The notes under the pieces: generated by a model
Seen by the model: only the letters and a program-made list of their open reading frames with translations
Database searches by the model: none
What the model was told of the DNA's origin: nothing
Program-made: the position numbers and the translations under genes
Source: a virus
Taxonomy: Duplodnaviria > Caudoviricetes
IMG/VR virus record: IMGVR_UViG_3300030433_001936
Coordinates: 10,760 to 74,759 of that record
Length of the DNA stretch: 64,000 bases
Direction: 5' to 3' (one strand)
Shown here: positions 5,183 through 12,148 of the stretch, piece by piece
Layout: the number at the start of each line of letters is the position of its first letter
Numbering within the stretch: position 1 is the stretch's first letter

Positions 5183-5619
5183 ACGAAATCCTCCACTATT
5201 GATTCAAAGGTGGAACGGATACGGGATGCCAAATTGTGATAGAAGTCATGGATTTCAGCAGGACCTGTAAATGGTCGTGCCATGTCATCACAAAATTGGT
5301 CAAATTGGTTGACCATCAAAGCAAAGCGTTGGCGCAATGGCCAGGCTTCTTCGGGGTCATCGTTTTCATATACGGCTTCAACGGTATCACGGAGCATTGC
5401 TACAAATTCATAGCGTGAATCTGCCCAACCTTCGGGGGTTGGTGCGATTCGCCCGACCAAATCCACCCAAACTCCAACGCTCGCTTGAAGCGTGTTGAAG
5501 AATGTGATGACATCTTCTTCGGGGATTGCGCCTTCTTCGGTCAAAATTTCTGCGCGTGGCATTTCCACACACATTAAATCGGCTACGGGAACGGAAACAT
5601 AAGTCGGTTTGTCATTCAT
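5179..5619 (-). CDS. Hypothetical protein
   Basis: 146 aa acidic helical ORF overlapping neighbours by 4-8 nt. Confidence 0.7.
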   Translation of the reverse strand: MNDKPTYVSVPVADLMCVEMPRAEILTEEGAIPEEDVITFFNTLQASVGVWVDLVGRIAPTPEGWADSRYEFVAMLRDTVEAVYENDDPEEAWPLRQRFALMVNQFDQFCDDMARPFTGPAEIHDFYHNLASRIRSTFESIVEDFV

Positions 5620-6313
5620 CTTGGCTCACCTCAATTACATCCGACGCATCCGTATTCAATAAGGATTCCCGCACCCGTCGCCATGTGTCGGGCGATTCTT
5701 TCGCCAATTCAATCTTCATGATGTTGATGGTGTCTGCCTTCATATTGGTTTCAGACAACGACATCCCCGTGCCGTCTTGGATTTTGATGATGTCCTTCAC
5801 CGTTTCACGGACTTCTTTGCTCAAGCCCGTCAAATTACGGACATATTGCGGGTCATTTCTGTCGGCTTCATCCAACATCAATTCCAATTCCCCGTTCAAC
5901 CGTTCAGCGTTCTTTCGCAGTTGGTCAATCTCTTCGCCAGCAGCCAACGCAATGATTGGGGCTGCTGATGCTTTGACGATTGGCTTCAAATGATGACGCA
6001 TGTGGTGATAAACAGTGGATTCAGCACATCCCAATAGTTCTGCAATGTCAGCAGATGGGAAGCCTTCAATCATGTAGCGATGTTCAAGTTCTGCCCGTTG
6101 GTCGGATGTGCAAACTACGCATTGTGAATTTGAACCCATGTGATATTCGCCCATGTGATTGCGAAAATGGCGGTCAGATGTGCCTTCACGCCATCCCATG
6201 TCCTTATCCAATTGCTTCGGGACACTGATTCCCGACACCAAATCCTGTTCAAAAGAATCGCGTGATTCATGCACACAAAAGGGACATGACTTGCGTGTGA
6301 TTCTCTCCGCCAT
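5612..6313 (-). CDS. Tandem CxxC-HTH-HxxxH DNA-binding protein with coiled coil (candidate terminase small subunit)
   Basis: Two repeats: CPFC...DRHFRNHM and CVVC...IAELLGCAESTVYHHMRHHL, followed by a coiled coil. Confidence 0.55.
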   Translation of the reverse strand: MAERITRKSCPFCVHESRDSFEQDLVSGISVPKQLDKDMGWREGTSDRHFRNHMGEYHMGSNSQCVVCTSDQRAELEHRYMIEGFPSADIAELLGCAESTVYHHMRHHLKPIVKASAAPIIALAAGEEIDQLRKNAERLNGELELMLDEADRNDPQYVRNLTGLSKEVRETVKDIIKIQDGTGMSLSETNMKADTINIMKIELAKESPDTWRRVRESLLNTDASDVIEVSQDE

Positions 6314-6361: not shown

Positions 6362-6604
6362 ATGGGCAGGTTGGGTCGTGCGCCAAAAAAGAACTCGTTG
6401 CCAAAAACACTGAAAGAATTGGGTGTAGCGGGCATTGACATTGCGTTGGGGCGCACAGTTTCGCCCGCCAAAGCGAATGAACGGTTGAGTATGTGCAAAG
6501 ATTGTGAATACTACAACGGTTCACGGTGCAAACTGTGTGGTTGCTTTATGCAAACCAAAGTGGGGTTGAAGAATTCCACTTGCCCGATTCATAAATGGGA
6601 CTAG
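6362..6604 (+). CDS. Small Cys-rich protein (DUF6171-like)
   Basis: RLSMCKDC..RCKLCGCFMQTKV..CPIHKW pattern. Confidence 0.6.
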   Translation: MGRLGRAPKKNSLPKTLKELGVAGIDIALGRTVSPAKANERLSMCKDCEYYNGSRCKLCGCFMQTKVGLKNSTCPIHKWD

Positions 6605-6861
6605 CGAGATAACCGACGATATACCGTCCCCGCCAATACGAAGAACCCCATGACCATGACGACAATCCATGTGAGATTGTCGCCACTCAATTGGTTGCCA
6701 CGGGTTGCCAAAATAAGGAATGCACCGAGGAATAGTGAAATCACTTGCACCATAATCATGTCAACCATGACACTGTTGCTTGTGTCATGCATGATTTTCC
6801 AGCCATCGGATAGTTGACCCACAATGCTTGTTTGTGATTTTGGTTGTTGACCTGGTTGCAA
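6601..6861 (-). CDS. Small membrane protein (2 TM)
   Basis: Two hydrophobic segments and a basic C-terminus (YRRLSR). Confidence 0.7.
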   Translation of the reverse strand: MQPGQQPKSQTSIVGQLSDGWKIMHDTSNSVMVDMIMVQVISLFLGAFLILATRGNQLSGDNLTWIVVMVMGFFVLAGTVYRRLSR

Positions 6862-6868
6862 AATTGTA

Positions 6869-7477
6869 TCACCGTCCCGTCAATACTGACCTTACAAATC
6901 CACCCGCACCTTGTCCCACAGATTGCAACACCCCTGGGTCTGCCAATGCGTTATCCAACATACCTTGCATCATGCTTTGTTGTGCCATTTGCAACAGTTG
7001 TTGCTGTTGCATGAGCGATTGTTGCACGGCTTGATTGCAGTTTGATTGCAATTGCGTCATGTCGGCTTGGATGTTTTCGGGTGATAGCGTTTGCAAAGGC
7101 GTTGGCAACGATGTTATGTCAACACACAGGTTGCCGTCTTTGTCTTCAGTGAATTTTGCGTTGCGAAAAAACTCAACCAACGATAGGTTGACGATGTTCG
7201 CAATGATGTTGGTCAGTGTTGCGAGATTTTGACCCGATAGGAATTGTTCAACGGGGCGTTGTTGATGCAACAACCGTGAAACGATTTCCAATTCGGATGG
7301 TGGCATCACGGGTTGGTTTGGATTGTACTGACCGCCCGTTGCACCCGCCATGAACGAATTCATTGCGGATGATTGTTGCTGATACGAATTGAATTGTGGG
7401 TGAGAACCGTATTGCTGACCGCCACCCAATGCCATTGGTTGTTGCGGTTGGGCTTCTTTGTTGCTGAACCACATCAT
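6869..7477 (-). CDS. Q/M-rich hypothetical protein
   Basis: 202 aa ORF in the GTPase operon. Confidence 0.7.
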   Translation of the reverse strand: MMWFSNKEAQPQQPMALGGGQQYGSHPQFNSYQQQSSAMNSFMAGATGGQYNPNQPVMPPSELEIVSRLLHQQRPVEQFLSGQNLATLTNIIANIVNLSLVEFFRNAKFTEDKDGNLCVDITSLPTPLQTLSPENIQADMTQLQSNCNQAVQQSLMQQQQLLQMAQQSMMQGMLDNALADPGVLQSVGQGAGGFVRSVLTGR

Positions 7478-7501
7478 AACACCCCAAGCATTGGCAGTTA
7501 A

Positions 7502-8467
7502 TCAGGGCTTCGGCACTGCGGGTGCATTGAATTCCACTTGATTTTCTTGAATAAGGTCTTGCAACATGCCAACTTGTGCAACTGCAGGTTGAGCCGAAGG
7601 AGCAGCATGCAACAGCGGGCTGTTGTCGCCCAATCGTGCGAATTGGCGTTGGTCAAACACAATAACAGTCAAATCATTCATGCCCGTTTCTTTGTTGGTG
7701 AAGTGTTGGATGGGAATGCCATCAGCCTTCAACATTCGGAAGAACTCTTCATATTTGACAAGTTGATGTGGAGTGTTGTCATTGTTTGACTTTCGCACAG
7801 CAGCGATTGGCACGGCAACGGTGGATACGCCACGCTTCAACTTGTCTTTGAGTGTGCCTTTTTCAGTTTCGTGTGCTTTTTCTTCTTCGTCTTCCCATTG
7901 GCAAAGCAAATCGTATAGATGCAAATGTTCGGGGCAATATGTCGCAGTCAATGTTCGTCCACTGGTCACTCCTTCCCGTGCCAAAAATGCACGGGGTTGC
8001 CCACTTACTTGGTCAACGAAATACTTGTCCCAAAGGGACAATCCCGTTTCTTCATCACGAATATCGGCATAGATGTTGCCAACGATTTGCAAAAGGTTGC
8101 CAACATCACAACCATCAACAGCACACTGCGTGGTGTTGTGATTGTATCGGTATTTACCGCCAATCCATCGTCGTGGCGACCACCATTTGCGTTTCATTGG
8201 TTTCAACAACTGATACGCTTGCTTGATGTCTTTTCGTCTTCGTTTCTTTGGGTTCGGATGCACACTTGGATAGAAATTGACCTTCGGTATTTCAATGTGC
8301 GGTGTTTGTTCGGCAGCAGCCATCATTGCACCCTGCGCTTGAGCAGCGCTTTGTAGTTGATGCACATTCATGTTGGATTCGGCTGATAACTTCACCAAAT
8401 CTGCTTGTGTGTTCATTGCCAATTGGTTGTATTGCATTTGTCGGTTCTTATCAAACATTTTTTTCAA
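7502..8467 (-). CDS. Hypothetical protein with a polybasic/Trp patch and Cys/His residues
   Basis: 321 aa ORF overlapping the GTPase stop; KKRRRK..KRKWWSPRRW. Confidence 0.75.
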   Translation of the reverse strand: MKKMFDKNRQMQYNQLAMNTQADLVKLSAESNMNVHQLQSAAQAQGAMMAAAEQTPHIEIPKVNFYPSVHPNPKKRRRKDIKQAYQLLKPMKRKWWSPRRWIGGKYRYNHNTTQCAVDGCDVGNLLQIVGNIYADIRDEETGLSLWDKYFVDQVSGQPRAFLAREGVTSGRTLTATYCPEHLHLYDLLCQWEDEEEKAHETEKGTLKDKLKRGVSTVAVPIAAVRKSNNDNTPHQLVKYEEFFRMLKADGIPIQHFTNKETGMNDLTVIVFDQRQFARLGDNSPLLHAAPSAQPAVAQVGMLQDLIQENQVEFNAPAVPKP

Positions 8468-9177
8468 CTCCCTAACATGTTCATGAGACTGTTCTCAACA
8501 TTCCACCCGATGCGGGTTGCCATCATACTCACCTGACATACAACCCCATGCTTCTGCAATTTTATCATTGCGGGTCGGAATGGGTCAAAAATGCGGTGTT
8601 CCCGCAATCGTTGTTGTTGCCAAAGCACACTTGCTTGCTCATCCCACCACTTGTCGGCTTTGTTTGCAACCAAAAATACGAACTTGGGTTTGTACTTCTT
8701 CCCTTTGATTCGTCTTGACCACCTTCGGTATCGGTATCTGCGTTCAATGATTGAATCAACGAGATATTCAAAACCTGCAATGGCATCAACAGCGGCAGTA
8801 CCACCAGTTCGTGAACGGTCATCAAACATGAAAATGATTCCTTCCACTTGTCGGTCAACCATATCGTCAACCCATAGCGACCAAAATTTGCGTTCACCAC
8901 CGAGGTCTGCCGAATGCACCACACGCTTTTTCCCTTCATATCGGATACGCTTCCGTGTTGGCATTGGCAAAACATAGTCCTTGCCAATCAGTTTTTTGAA
9001 ATGGGTGGTTCGGTGTTTTTCGCCCAATTCTTCCATTTCGCCAGGTGTGGTCATATACATGTCAAGTGTGGTTTTGCCGACTTCGGTAGGTCCGTAAATG
9101 CCGACCCTTCGTGGCTTCCAATAATCGTACAACTCTTTGCCGTAAAGAGCAGCACCGAGCAACACTGTTCCTGCCAA
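8464..9177 (-). CDS. Small GTPase (Ras superfamily, Arf/Roc-like)
   Basis: G1 GPTEVGKT, switch-I Thr (HRTT), G3 DLGG, G4 NKAD, G5-like MATRIGWNV. Confidence 0.85.
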   Translation of the reverse strand: MAGTVLLGAALYGKELYDYWKPRRVGIYGPTEVGKTTLDMYMTTPGEMEELGEKHRTTHFKKLIGKDYVLPMPTRKRIRYEGKKRVVHSADLGGERKFWSLWVDDMVDRQVEGIIFMFDDRSRTGGTAAVDAIAGFEYLVDSIIERRYRYRRWSRRIKGKKYKPKFVFLVANKADKWWDEQASVLWQQQRLREHRIFDPFRPAMIKLQKHGVVCQVSMMATRIGWNVENSLMNMLGS

Positions 9178-9417
9178 TCAAAACAACCCCGTAATCCAAC
9201 CTAGCGTTGAATTTAGAACGATGTTGTAAAGGCTCACATCCGTGTAGTATTCCACACCCGATGTGATAATAGTTGCAATTGCAGAACAAATCAATGCCTT
9301 TACCCAACCCCATGTTCGCTCATACACACGGTCAACTTGATTTGCCATGTGCAATTGGCGCAGTGTTCCTTCAACTGCGTCGTCGCTTGGTGTTTTGAAT
9401 AGCCAACCCATGTTCAT
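9178..9417 (-). CDS. Small membrane protein
   Basis: MGWLF N-terminus; hydrophobic C-terminal half. Confidence 0.7.
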   Translation of the reverse strand: MNMGWLFKTPSDDAVEGTLRQLHMANQVDRVYERTWGWVKALICSAIATIITSGVEYYTDVSLYNIVLNSTLGWITGLF

Positions 9418-9998
9418 TCCTTCTTATATCGCTTGTCAGGTTTGCCATCCTTTGTCAACGGCACTTCTTTTGTCAAATCAACACCGAGATTAACTGCTTC
9501 CTTCTTGTCGGTGCGGTGTTTTGGTGGTGGATTGAATTCGGACGGTTGTTCTTTGAATGTCTGTGGTTTCGGCTCAACAATCTGTGGGATGGCTTCATAC
9601 CCTGACATTGACATTGCCATATACGCATCGGGGTTCTCTTCCAACATCCGCAACTGCTTTTCCATTTGCATCTGTCGCATTTTCAGTTCGGTTTCCAACT
9701 GTGCATTTGCAAATTGCGAGTTCATTTCACGCAATCGTGCATCACGCACTCTTTGGGTGCGTTGCCATTGGGCTTTGCTATCCATGTTGTCTTGTAGCAA
9801 CAACTTGTAAAAGAAATACGACATACCTTGCAGGGTAAATGCCCCCATTGCATATGTCAAAGCGTTGCTATATGTGTCTTGACTTTTCAGCCACAAATCT
9901 GCGTCAAACACGGCAATAGCAGCCCCAACCAAAATGGATACGAAGCCGATAAAACCCATGACACGCAGTATGTCTTCATTCGTTTGAGCGTCTGTCAT
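9414..9998 (-). CDS. Membrane protein (2 TM) with a cytoplasmic coiled coil
   Basis: Start refined to MTDAQ (ATG 9998, GAGGGAG RBS); two TM segments then Q/E/R-rich coiled coil. Confidence 0.75.
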   Translation of the reverse strand: MTDAQTNEDILRVMGFIGFVSILVGAAIAVFDADLWLKSQDTYSNALTYAMGAFTLQGMSYFFYKLLLQDNMDSKAQWQRTQRVRDARLREMNSQFANAQLETELKMRQMQMEKQLRMLEENPDAYMAMSMSGYEAIPQIVEPKPQTFKEQPSEFNPPPKHRTDKKEAVNLGVDLTKEVPLTKDGKPDKRYKKE

Positions 9999-10056
9999 AC
10001 AGTTCTCCCTCGGTATATGGGTGCAATTGCCCCTCAATAACCATTCCCATGAAACA

Positions 10057-10132
10057 GTATTGATATTATCATGTATTGTGTAAGACAATAATAGCCGTAT
10101 TATTCCCATATGATACATGGGAATATCAATAC
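10057..10132. repeat. AT-rich nested palindrome, copy A
   Basis: GTATTGATATTATCATGTATTGT-GTAAG-ACAATAATAG; outer 20 bp inverted repeat 10057-10076 / 10113-10132 (2 mismatches). Confidence 0.8.
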
Positions 10133-10222
10133 GATGGGTGGGTCGGACGGGAGTGAAGGCGAGAGAGAACCAATCACACGGGCATCCGCCCGACCCGCAT
10201 GCATGCTGGCTTATACGGCATA

Positions 10223-10930
10223 TCAGGCTTGGCGTTGACGACTACCCGTTGATTGGGGTTCATCAGCGCGACCTCGGACACCAACACGAGCGGGCGCTCG
10301 CATTTCAGCACGACGAGATGTTTGGGCAAACGGATTGCTTGGTTGTTCATTTCGTTGTTTGAATGATTCCGCCAAATTGTCAAGAATGTCATCAGCGTCC
10401 CCATCTTCAGCCATTTCAGCATGGCGATGTTCGTGGGGAGCAGCCTCAACACGACCAGGAATTTGTGCGGTCAGTGTTCCCGTCTTCATGCCAGGGGCGA
10501 TACCGCCTTGCACATCGGGCGAAGTGCCAGGGAAAAATTGACGGGATGGGATACCGAGTCTTCGCATTGCACCCATCAATCCACCACCGCCACGGGCTTT
10601 GGGTTCACGACCCGAATGGGGAATGGGTGGGCGACCTTCTTCCATGCGAGCCATATGATGTGCGGGGACATCTGCGCCACCACGCATTCTTTCGTAGTAC
10701 TTTTCCGATGCGGGTGTGCGACCTACGCCACCCATACCTGACCCATCATCGCTTGGGTATCCACGGGGGACACCACGGCTACCGAACATACCGCCACCCA
10801 AATCGGGTGGGGTGATTCCACGGCTTGCCATAGCCAATTCTTTAGGTCCAATCGCTTTCATCACTGCGACTCGCATATCACTGCGTAGTGCAATGTAATT
10901 TATGAACATGTCTGCCATACGGGGTATCAT
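10223..10930 (-). CDS. G/R/P/M-rich disordered hypothetical protein
   Basis: 235 aa ORF. Confidence 0.6.
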   Translation of the reverse strand: MIPRMADMFINYIALRSDMRVAVMKAIGPKELAMASRGITPPDLGGGMFGSRGVPRGYPSDDGSGMGGVGRTPASEKYYERMRGGADVPAHHMARMEEGRPPIPHSGREPKARGGGGLMGAMRRLGIPSRQFFPGTSPDVQGGIAPGMKTGTLTAQIPGRVEAAPHEHRHAEMAEDGDADDILDNLAESFKQRNEQPSNPFAQTSRRAEMRAPARVGVRGRADEPQSTGSRQRQA

Positions 10931-11216
10931 GGCGGGTCAATCCGAACAAGCACACCGCCACAAAATTCAGTATGATACTGAATACGAATCGTCCCCCGAG
11001 CGCATCAAATATCGGGAAGAACTCAACCGTGAGCGAAGGCGAAGGGGCATTTACGGGCGTGGTGGACCTGATGTTAGCCACACCCGTGCAAACACATTGG
11101 TGTTGGAAAGTCCACACAAAAATCGTGCGCGACACTTCAAAGAGCGTGGGACTTTGAAATCAAACCCCGCACCCATTGACCAAGCGTGGTCAGTTTTGAA
11201 GCATCAATTGGATTGA
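10902..11216 (+). CDS. Small basic protein (HNH/His-Me-finger-like) with a C-terminal AWxxLK tag
   Basis: RERRRRG..PDVSH...LVLESPHKNRAR resembles small basic HNH-derived marine phage proteins; ends PIDQAWSVLKHQLD. Confidence 0.6.
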   Translation: MNMSAIRGIMAGQSEQAHRHKIQYDTEYESSPERIKYREELNRERRRRGIYGRGGPDVSHTRANTLVLESPHKNRARHFKERGTLKSNPAPIDQAWSVLKHQLD

Positions 11217-12006
11217 CAGTGCCAACGCCATTGTCATTCGCCCATTGCAACAATGTTTCAGTTGCCAAATTTGCACCCGACCCTTTGACAAACGGACACC
11301 CACCGATACCGCCAATGCTTGTGTCAAACTGACGAATGCCAACATCGTATGCCATTTGCACATTGCCGATAAGCGAATCCCCATGTTCGTTTTCATGCAA
11401 ATGCACTGCCCACTTTGTTGACGGCATACGGGCAATGATGTCGCCAATGCGTTGAATGGATTGAGCATCGGCAATACCCGCAGTATCTGACAACACAACG
11501 GTGTAGCCCAACAATGCCGATTGTTGCAACACATTGGCTATGAACAAATCGTCATACTGACCGTCAGTGGGACAACCGAATGCGTGTGAGATATACACAC
11601 GGATGTTTTCTTTGGGAATACCCCACAACATGCTACGGTATGTTGCATGCAACACTGCCAACGATGAATTAAAATTTTCAGCGTTGAATGTTTCCGATGG
11701 CGATAGGCACACATTGATGTTGGTTGCGCCCACTGCTTTTGCCCGTTCCAATCCTTTTTCGTTTGGCACTAGCACACTCAAATGACACGGCAATTTTTTG
11801 ATTTCATTAAATACTGTTGCAGATGCGCTCATGTTTGGCACAAGTTTGGGATGCACAAAACTGCCGACTTCTATATTGCGGATTCCACAATCATACAATT
11901 GTTCTATCATGCTGACTTTGTCAGCCACTGACACATCACACTTTGCAGATTGCAGACCATCACGAGGTCCGACTTCGTAAATCTCAATCGTACTGCTTCC
12001 CTTCAT
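11137..12006 (-). CDS. hmgL: Hydroxymethylglutaryl-CoA lyase (HMGL-like, DRE-TIM family)
   Basis: EVGPRDGLQ, IEVGSFVHPKLVP, HLHE metal motif, GGCPF..GSGANLATE; start likely MKGSS at 12006. Confidence 0.85.
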   Translation of the reverse strand: MKGSSTIEIYEVGPRDGLQSAKCDVSVADKVSMIEQLYDCGIRNIEVGSFVHPKLVPNMSASATVFNEIKKLPCHLSVLVPNEKGLERAKAVGATNINVCLSPSETFNAENFNSSLAVLHATYRSMLWGIPKENIRVYISHAFGCPTDGQYDDLFIANVLQQSALLGYTVVLSDTAGIADAQSIQRIGDIIARMPSTKWAVHLHENEHGDSLIGNVQMAYDVGIRQFDTSIGGIGGCPFVKGSGANLATETLLQWANDNGVGTVNPIDASKLTTLGQWVRGLISKSHAL

Positions 12007-12148
12007 GACGCAATCCACCCATGCACATGGCTTGCAGTTCTTCGTCATTTTGGAAAACAACAACATCTTTTCCGATGTCATCAAACAACGAAATTATATG
12101 CTCAATCAACGCTAATCCAACAATTGCGGTAATGACCCAACCCCACAT
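11984..12148 (-). CDS. 54 aa single-TM micro-protein (not in the ORF track)
   Basis: My translation: MWGWVITAIVGLALIEHIISLFDDIGKDVVVFQNDEELQAMCMGGLRHEGKQYD. Confidence 0.45.
   Translation of the reverse strand: MWGWVITAIVGLALIEHIISLFDDIGKDVVVFQNDEELQAMCMGGLRHEGKQYD

Follow-up and report, generated by a model that had tools for sequence, protein, structure and literature searches.

A small GTPase encoded by an archaeal virus, together with five genes that accompany it, is described here from a stretch of 64,000 nucleotides of the IMG/VR record IMGVR_UViG_3300030433_001936 (positions 10,760 to 74,759). This stretch of 64 kb, called the window below, is part of a viral contig of 74.8 kb. Gene D, in the middle of six tightly packed open reading frames (ORFs) on the minus strand (F-E-D-C-B-A, 9998-6601), is clearly a small GTPase and, according to its fold model, would be a divergent member of the extended Arf clade (Arf/Sar/SR-beta/Rag/G-alpha). 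Its five neighbours, among them three small membrane proteins, are inherited with it in related viral genomes. We infer that the GTPase family and its operon constitute a small-GTPase membrane switch which is specific to viruses and has an undescribed set of partners, and the function discussed below is likewise a proposal. The genes and the region upstream of them are as follows:

9999..10222, minus strand: intergenic region upstream of F, 224 nt, AT-rich (from sequence reading)
9414..9998, minus strand: gene F, 194 aa, membrane hairpin and charged helical arm
9178..9417, minus strand: gene E, 79 aa, small membrane protein, stop abutting the GTPase start
8464..9177, minus strand: gene D, the GTPase, 237 aa, recognised by motifs and fold
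7502..8467, minus strand: gene C, 321 aa, start overlapping the GTPase stop by 4 nt
6869..7477, minus strand: gene B, 202 aa, Q-rich N-terminus, no transmembrane (TM) segment
6601..6861, minus strand: gene A, 86 aa, two-TM hairpin with basic C-terminus, last gene of the operon

All six ORFs lie on the minus strand at the coordinates given in the initial annotation of this DNA, which had been made from the sequence alone. Its claim of tight coupling is also borne out: F/E, E/D and D/C share 4-nt overlaps or abutting stop and start codons. Successive overlaps and gaps within the block are -4, 0, -4, 24 and 7 nt, and those outside it are 224 and 287 nt. A GGGAG box resembling a Shine-Dalgarno sequence is located at 10005-10009, 7 nt before the ATG of F at 9998. 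This box and the length of the F orthologues (170-219 aa) show that the start chosen initially for F was correct; a longer F ORF reaching 10118 is unsupported by the orthologue lengths. The operon promoter probably resides in the 224-nt region.

Co-conservation was counted by tblastn over 80 IMG/VR loci. Genes A, B, C, D and E were found in all 80 and gene F in 78, and the order was always F-E-D-C-B-A. Because the proteins are conserved in the same order in 78-80 of the 80 viral loci, the six ORFs are judged to be genuine genes and not chance ORFs. The initial annotation had proposed a synteny check, with neighbours that do not accompany the GTPase as the refuting outcome; what was found is that the five neighbours accompany it in 78-80 of these loci. 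The same gene sizes and order were also observed on a contig whose GTPase is 39% identical. Since the AT-rich leader of 224 nt and a conserved convergent gene bound the block on its two sides, F-E-D-C-B-A can be treated as a discrete unit. It would be one co-transcribed, translationally coupled operon, a proposal that forms part of a joint explanation which, taken as a whole, is possible rather than probable.

More distant loci indicate which parts of the module persist. In locus L087, where the GTPase is 37% identical, F, E, D, C, B and A were all recognised by profile hidden Markov models (HMMs) of the orthologues. The L087 module adjoins glycosyltransferases and a TFIIB-like gene, and because it does not stand beside packaging genes there, the module appears to travel as an autonomous cassette. 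In the most distant locus, L082 (GTPase 30% identical), the GTPase still has near it a small membrane protein resembling E and a second protein which, like F, combines a TM hairpin with a charged helix; C, B and A were not detectable in L082 with orthologue profiles. As all three types are kept in L082, the GTPase and the E and F membrane proteins may be regarded as the persistent core.

Additional DNA was observed inside the module of some loci. An extra gene of 252 aa belonging to no family is located between E and the GTPase in L087 (L087:7241-7999), and in the magrovirus loci L052, L067 and L079 the GTPase and C are separated by approximately 0.2-1 kb of additional sequence. The module can accommodate insertions.

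Sequence and fold of the GTPase

The features of the GTPase are listed in the order of its residues:

9118..9174, minus strand: residues 2-20, N-terminal helix, hydrophobic and Gly/Ala-rich, candidate membrane anchor
9070..9093, minus strand: residues 29-36, P-loop (G1) GPTEVGKT, conserved in family alignments
8896..8907, minus strand: residues 91-94, G3 motif DLGG (DxGG), D91 and G94 invariant in the diverse alignment
8683..8742, minus strand: residues 146-165, polybasic and aromatic loop between alpha3 (H127-144) and beta5 (E166-171)
8653..8664, minus strand: residues 172-175, G4 motif NKAD (NKxD, guanine specificity), N172 and K173 invariant, D175 nearly so

Conservation was judged over 26 close and 20 diverse relatives. 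The motifs GPTEVGKT, DLGG and NKAD, described as intact in the initial annotation, are located at residues 29-36, 91-94 and 172-175; G1, G3 and G4 are conserved among these relatives, as is a G5-like segment, S/M-A-T-x-x-G-W-N-V. Judged from these sequences, guanine-nucleotide binding is well supported. Intrinsic GTP hydrolysis is not, because the residue directly after DxGG, the position of the catalytic Gln in Arf, is E95 in the window protein, and the family as a whole has Q, E, H, D or A there.

Other features named initially were found with some modification. The polybasic insert extends from R146 to K165; this basic loop before beta5, a hallmark of the family, ends in Y-x-P and was observed in every member, even at 27% identity. 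RTT is indeed found at R56-T58, and the switch-I Thr is ambiguous: it may be T57, in an invariant R-T-x-H, or T74, which lies in a 'PT' 17 residues before DxGG and directly before the predicted strand beta2. The R-T-x-H is contained in an insert of approximately 20 residues between helix alpha1 and strand beta2. Of the proposed hydrophobic/amphipathic leader, the hydrophobic character stands (mean hydrophobicity 0.37) and the amphipathic character is only weak (hydrophobic moment 0.24-0.30). The leader is a helix at residues 2-20 in the structural model, and G3 and G8 within it are invariant among close relatives.

The AlphaFold2 model built from the family alignment has a pLDDT of 71 and a pTM of 0.71. 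In Foldseek it matched more than 500 small-GTPase chains, with E down to 3e-8 and with Rab, Arl and Rho at 1e-7 to 1e-8. Structural matches were ranked by VIA re-alignment of the Foldseek matches and by an independent scan of 48,161 PDB representatives, and the two rankings agree. The best match is the Lokiarchaeal RagA-like protein LokiRagO (Z 14.9-15.1; root mean square deviation, rmsd, 3.3-3.5; 170 residues aligned), followed at Z 13.3-14.2 by Arf6, SR-beta, G-alpha-i, Arl2/3/6, Arf1, Asgard ArfR1, Sar1, G-alpha-s and RagD. Nearly all of the 12 highest-ranking matches in the unbiased scan belong to Rag, Arf, SR-beta, G-alpha, Arl2 or Sar1 (Z 13.0-14.9). Ras, Rab, Rho and translation-factor G domains mostly reach Z 11-12.7, about 1-2 Z below the Arf/Rag group; in the unbiased scan most classical Ras, Rab and Rho proteins scored 11.4-12.7. 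With G1, G3 and G4 in order on the G domain and a fold match of Z up to 15, the protein is a Ras-superfamily small GTPase (TRAFAC class). Because Z differences below 1 are ties, the label 'extended Arf clade' is used here and not Arf proper. Thus, the initial description as 'Arf/Ras-like' holds for the Arf-like branch by fold, and its family label has to be loosened to this clade, with no membership by sequence.

In sequence comparisons, the GTPase belongs to no curated family. Scores were below the cut-off for Pfam Arf (PF00025, 13.8 bits, cut-off 22.3), Pfam SRPRB (PF09439, 13.2 bits, cut-off 25) and the NCBIfam/TIGR model small_GTP (15.9 bits, cut-off 42.5), and the best Arf E-value among 20 family members, 0.0048, is also below threshold. 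Sub-threshold Pfam matches of these 20 members are divided among Arf (10), MMR_HSR1 (6), GTP_EFTU (5), Roc (4) and Gtr1_RagA (1). Phmmer and profile searches of PDB sequences with the GTPase gave nothing significant beyond the P-loop. Features diagnostic of single families are missing as well. The Gln that directly follows DxGG in Arf is replaced by Glu in the window protein; no N-terminal window of 19 residues reaches a Kyte-Doolittle value of 1.5 or more, as would a TM anchor of the SR-beta type; and the chain terminates directly behind the final helix of the G domain, at residue 237, with no C-terminal roadblock domain as in Rag/Gtr. Longer or fused forms of the GTPase were searched for and none was found (weak evidence).

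The family appears to be restricted to viruses. A word-indexed search returned 436 clusters of GTPase homologues at 90% identity, all unnamed and many on contigs of 90-116 kb, and an exhaustive phmmer scan of 1.8 billion representative proteins gave 74 matches, with no cellular GTPase among them. In IMG/VR, 292 viral contigs carry a relative. Five matching contigs were found in the GTDB species genomes, all viral in character; 4 of them were binned into unrelated metagenome-assembled genomes. The fifth, of 106 kb, is in the Poseidoniales single-cell genome AG-422-I20 (L094/L095), and its GTPase is 36% identical. This magrovirus-sized contig would provide a direct link between host and virus for a relative of the virus studied here. 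A profile search of 201 Poseidoniales genomes for the viral family detected only the same viral-size 106-kb contig (1/201), and tblastn against INPHARED phage records gave no match. From these searches, the family looks virus-restricted, without a recognisable host parent. A member with 32% identity (P0157) was observed on an 11-kb contig with Tad2-like, Acb5 and integrase genes; to judge from this contig, the family may reach beyond magroviruses into other viruses.

Partner proteins of the GTPase

Hydropathy analysis assigns membrane segments to F, E and A and none to B, C or the GTPase. Gene F, initially described as a 2-TM coiled-coil protein, has one strong TM segment (residues 13-31) and a weaker second hydrophobic segment (approximately 46-68). 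The coiled-coil part of the description is reflected in an R/Q/E/M-rich helical, coiled-coil-like cytoplasmic stretch after the TM segments, which is followed by a basic C-terminus that carries a conserved LG...DG motif. Gene E is, as described, a small membrane protein starting with MGWLF. It is found in all 80 loci. Its cytosolic N-terminal peptide (MGWLFKTPSDD...) is strongly conserved, whereas the hydrophobic C-terminal half, with one marginal TM, varies. Two strong TM segments in A agree with its earlier description as a 2-TM protein, and its C-terminus is basic.

Both soluble partners likewise correspond to what had been noted for them, namely a Q-rich protein (B) and a polybasic/Trp protein (C). 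The Q-rich N-terminus of B is probably disordered and is followed by a conserved C-terminal domain; an ESM Atlas search with B gave no usable match. Gene C is the best conserved partner, with 606 homologue clusters, all unnamed, and its basic/Trp-rich segment is evident in the alignment. The invariant residues C115, C120, C178, H181 and H183 (nt 7919-8125) form a probable, predicted zinc site. The AlphaFold2 model of C has a confident core at residues 70-205 (pLDDT 80-90). Compared with solved folds, this core gave no Foldseek match below E 0.1 (best 0.14), and the best Z in a wide VIA scan was 4.7. Resemblance to Rab-binding helical hairpins (Z 3.8-3.9) is at noise level and was not used.

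None of the six proteins has a family in PHROGs. A, E and F are holin-like in small size and TM topology, features which are not diagnostic, and they do not belong to any described holin family. The statement in the initial annotation that no endolysin or holin is recognisable in the window holds for the approximately 45 ORFs scanned, with the qualification that E matches Phage_holin_3_1 below threshold (E 0.025, 15.4 bits, cut-off 23.8); E has no PHROG match.

Genome context and possible roles of the operon

Group A magroviruses, tailed viruses of Marine Group II/Poseidoniales archaea, have been described with a particular gene combination (PMC5434244), and the window presents the same one. 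Genes for a family-B DNA polymerase (PolB), an SNF2 helicase, a thermosome-type chaperonin and a DNA methylase are found in the plus-strand arm (20-59 kb). The other arm, on the minus strand, extends leftwards from approximately 19.5 kb and past window position 1 to the large terminase subunit (TerL) and portal. The window is thus a magrovirus genome (order Magrovirales) and matches group A by PolB, SNF2, thermosome, TerL and portal. The magrovirus source named initially is confirmed by PolB, SNF2 and thermosome in the window and by TerL and portal just downstream (PMC5434244). The operon shares its strand with TerL and portal, and both genes lie downstream of it. Features around it are as follows:

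5612-6313, minus strand: helix-turn-helix (HTH) gene, 233 aa, N-terminal Cys pairs and a sigma-70 region-4/LuxR-type HTH (Pfam E 8e-6)
6362-6604, plus strand: Cys-rich 80-aa ORF, convergent with gene A and overlapping the gene A stop, in 79/80 loci at 44-57% identity
10120-11137: variable region between F and the lyase gene
10223-10930, minus strand: ORF G, 235 aa, in 2/80 loci only
11137-12084, minus strand: HMG-CoA-lyase-like gene (Pfam HMGL-like, E 2e-27), in 8/80 related loci only
4346, 11175 (plus strand), 12218, 13877, 15341, 15837, 16343, 17362, 18167, 18614, 19496 and 40299 (plus strand): sites of a shared peptide tag

The conservation of the 80-aa ORF in 79 of the 80 loci argues that it is a real small gene. 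It forms the 3' bound of the operon and sets the operon apart from the HTH gene and the packaging genes. The HTH/zinc protein comes directly after the operon in 80 of 80 loci (g3417 is found in 79) and may be a late regulator or a small subunit of the terminase; its inclusion in the operon was rejected, as the conserved convergent gene stands between. On the other side, ORF G overlaps a plus-strand ORF of 104 aa (10902-11216) whose end is the shared peptide tag. An HMGL-like accessory metabolic gene has already been reported for magroviruses (PMC10160649). In many long contigs (L020, L023, L026, L040, L045, L050-L054, L013, L037, L059, L070 and others) the GTPase is located approximately 8-10 kb from a contig end. 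In the window, such a distance leads to the divergent region (approximately 19.6-20.1 kb). This points to a genome with fixed ends in that region and with inward transcription of the two arms.

The peptide tag, P-[I/M/F]-D-x-A-W-x-x-L-K, occurs in about 11 otherwise unrelated late-arm proteins, in N-terminal, C-terminal or internal position, and once at the N-terminus of a replication-arm protein. To judge from its sequence, the tag may be a short linear motif for docking or processing. The operon lies between approximately 10 tag-bearing proteins (10.9-19.5 kb) and g3417, which also bears the tag. In C a look-alike is found, the invariant D-I-K-Q-A-Y-x-L-L-K at about 8227; D, E, F, A and B carry no tag.

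Two marine metatranscriptome libraries from one sample contain short contigs 100% identical to gene C (7894-8096 and 8250-8407) and, at the same identity, a contig across the D/C junction (8307-8479), besides contigs on neighbouring genes. These are a weak hint of expression: they agree with transcription, and with D and C being transcribed together, and DNA carry-over is also possible. Parts of the operon left uncovered in X18 and X20 carry no information. RNA run X6 was not counted as expression evidence; it covers the whole stretch in the pattern of its sister DNA run and is probably viral DNA.

The reading preferred here, advanced tentatively, is that the operon would be a membrane-anchored GTP switch acting late on the host membrane, most likely in virion release. 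F, E and A would insert into the host cytoplasmic membrane. The GTP form of D would attach to this membrane via its N-terminal hydrophobic helix and its polybasic alpha3-beta5 loop, and would engage the helical arm on the cytoplasmic side of F, the conserved peptide at the N-terminus of E, or both. The zinc-type protein C, with or without B, may serve as a regulator or effector of D. Through its nucleotide state, D would then gate or time what happens to the membrane late in infection; most likely the membrane would be disrupted or form vesicles, so that virions are released. Beyond the point that D is a guanine-nucleotide-binding protein co-inherited with membrane proteins, we infer every step of this scheme. 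The initial reading of a GTP-switched module for membrane remodelling, lysis or compartment formation is supported in part, namely for the GTPase, the magrovirus setting and the co-conservation; the membrane role itself would be a candidate function. The egress machinery of tailed archaeal viruses is described as completely uncharacterised (PMC10791045). The bolder form of the proposal, in which the operon would be the egress machine of these viruses, carrying out self-contained, GTP-timed membrane rupture or scission with a switch and hairpins in place of holin/antiholin timing, is rather unlikely.

Several observations weigh against a late membrane switch for virion release. The N-terminal helix of the GTPase is only weakly amphipathic, and with a catalytic position after DxGG that varies, timing via hydrolysis is uncertain. 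No protein of the block matches the holin, lysin, ESCRT, PVAP or ArvB/ArvC families. The operon is in the morphogenesis arm, which weakens this reading and makes an assembly role possible, and the tag in the flanking genes together with the look-alike in C would fit a virion-associated role. In such a virion or ejection module, the chief alternative, F, E and A would be packaged pilot proteins which enter the host membrane at genome delivery, C would be internal, and the GTPase would be either packaged or a prohead-loading chaperone. Ejection proteins of tailed phages often have TM segments. The position of the block, flanked by tag-bearing proteins and upstream of TerL and portal on their strand, speaks for this alternative, as does the invariant sequence in C. 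However, the other five proteins are devoid of the tag, and the look-alike is lost in the distant C orthologue of L087. No tag was found in L087 or L082, and the L087 module is not beside packaging genes. In addition, no earlier case of a nucleotide switch within a capsid is known to us. On balance, a virion-associated module has a small though real likelihood.

Two further alternatives were considered. The viral GTPase may replace a host system of the ArvA type and bud vesicles, which would be decoys or would allow non-lytic release or anti-superinfection remodelling of the surface. For this there is precedent in ArvA (PMC10927574), with a shared layout in which a GTPase with an N-terminal helix is followed by small partners, one of them zinc-type. 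The P-loop context is shared, profile-profile alignment by hhalign gives a probability of 95-96% (E 6e-9), and OapB was not found in the 61 Poseidoniales genomes searched. Nevertheless, the significant profile match extends only from the P-loop to switch-I, the ArvA HMM gives 9-18 bits, and C and B match neither OapB nor DUF2072. ArvA has neither TM partners nor the polybasic loop, its switch-II insert is missing from the viral family, and vesicle exit is not known for tailed viruses in archaea. Vesiculation without lysis is doubtful. The remaining alternative is least likely of those considered: a Rag- or G-alpha-like switch that mimics host signalling and takes over metabolism or division, or an SR-beta-like receptor that helps to insert viral membrane proteins. 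The top structural match to an Asgard Rag-like GTPase (Z 14.9-15.1), the SR-beta match (Z 14.1), weak Pfam matches to SRPRB and Gtr1_RagA, and an N-terminal hydrophobic segment as in SR-beta are in its favour. Against it, the Z differences among Rag, Arf, SR-beta and G-alpha are below 1 and are ties, the protein ends with the G domain and has no roadblock domain, and Pfam searches revealed no partner of the SRX, longin or roadblock type. That the GTPase is strictly linked to three virus-specific membrane proteins speaks instead for a self-contained device.

Full-text literature searches found no paper that combines magroviruses with a GTPase, and the main papers on magroviruses and archaeal tailed viruses make no mention of one. 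Magroviruses are among the most abundant archaeal viruses of the surface ocean (PMC5434244). Their operon offers a concrete candidate for egress, which could be tested by heterologous expression although the hosts are uncultured. It also widens the range of small GTPases by an Arf/Rag-branch family present in prokaryotic viruses only, with partners unlike any described system of guanine-nucleotide exchange factors (GEFs), GTPase-activating proteins (GAPs) or coats, and it bears on the origin of GTPase-driven membrane remodelling in Archaea. If a virion-associated role were true, a nucleotide switch in tailed-virus assembly or genome delivery would be equally unusual.

Comparison with known GTPase and lysis systems

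The Arf, Arl and Sar1 proteins, including Asgard ArfR (PDB 8OUM and 8OUK), match the viral GTPase in fold with Z of approximately 14 and rmsd of 2.8-3.0 over 157-163 residues. Arf proteins and the viral GTPase have in common an N-terminal helix before the G domain, DxGG followed by aromatic-x-L-W, and the 'PT' 17 residues before G3. Unlike Arf, the viral protein has no conserved catalytic Gln, no myristoylation context and no known GEF, GAP or coat partners, and it carries two insertions of about 20 residues each, one following alpha1 and a basic one preceding beta5. Rag/Gtr proteins, including LokiRagO (PDB 8YL2), give the best structural score, and one distant viral member matches Pfam Gtr1_RagA with E 2.8e-4. 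The viral GTPase differs from them in having no C-terminal roadblock domain and no Ragulator-like partners, and their Z is tied with those of Arf, SR-beta and G-alpha.

With the lambda-type lysis cassette, in which holin, antiholin and spanin lie upstream of terminase, the operon shares a tight cluster of small hairpins with 1-2 TM segments and charged C-termini in the late arm. It differs in that no protein belongs to the families concerned, no muralytic enzyme is present, and the cluster also includes two soluble proteins and a GTPase; moreover, the host is without peptidoglycan. Giant viruses also encode Ras-superfamily GTPases, and the mimivirus Rab (PDB 5XC5) is a structural match with Z 13.7. 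Those proteins were acquired recently from host Rab, Ran or Ras and can be recognised by sequence, whereas the GTPase described here belongs to a prokaryotic tailed virus and has no detectable cellular parent.

Judged by analogy, ArvA-ArvB-ArvC appears to be the closest functional precedent. ArvA of Haloferax is an Arf-like GTPase with an N-terminal helix; it is required for the formation of extracellular vesicles, which it drives together with ArvB and ArvC (PMC10927574). ArvB is encoded directly downstream of ArvA, and ArvC is a Zn-ribbon protein proposed as the GAP of ArvA (PMC10927574; PMC10791045). The three genes (OapABC) form an operon in Haloferax volcanii and in many Euryarchaeota and DPANN (PMC10927574). 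For comparison, 23 ArvA genes adjoining OapB were recovered from genomes of the host phylum. Like the viral GTPase, ArvA has a length of approximately 210-240 aa, an N-terminal helix (proposed to bind the membrane in ArvA) and an archaeal setting. In both operons small partner genes directly follow the GTPase, one of them with a Cys-based zinc site (probable in C), and both families share the P-loop context I-G-I-Y-G-P-x-x-x-G-K-T-T-L. Comparison of the two families by hhalign gave the probability cited above, the confident part being about 42 columns around the P-loop; a permissive alignment joined G1, G3, G4 and G5 over 179 columns (96%). The ArvA HMM scored the viral proteins no better than did Pfam Arf or Roc, and C, B, A, E and F had no Pfam/NCBIfam match to OapB (PF09846) or DUF2072 at E up to 0.1.

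The differences between the two systems concern both the GTPase and its partners. Three membrane proteins and a Q-rich protein of the viral module have no counterpart in ArvA-ArvB-ArvC; the viral GTPase has the polybasic alpha3-beta5 loop and the insert before beta2, and is without the long switch-II insert of ArvA. The viral family appears to be restricted to viruses, and the host order seems to be without ArvB. Membership in the ArvA system is not supported by these sequence comparisons, and the resemblance would be one of design. OapB/ArvB (PF09846) was found in 0 of the 61 Poseidoniales genomes searched, compared with 95 of 201 in the host-phylum sample. Because of this absence from the Poseidoniales genomes searched, the virus may bring a GTPase-membrane device into hosts that are without a cellular one.

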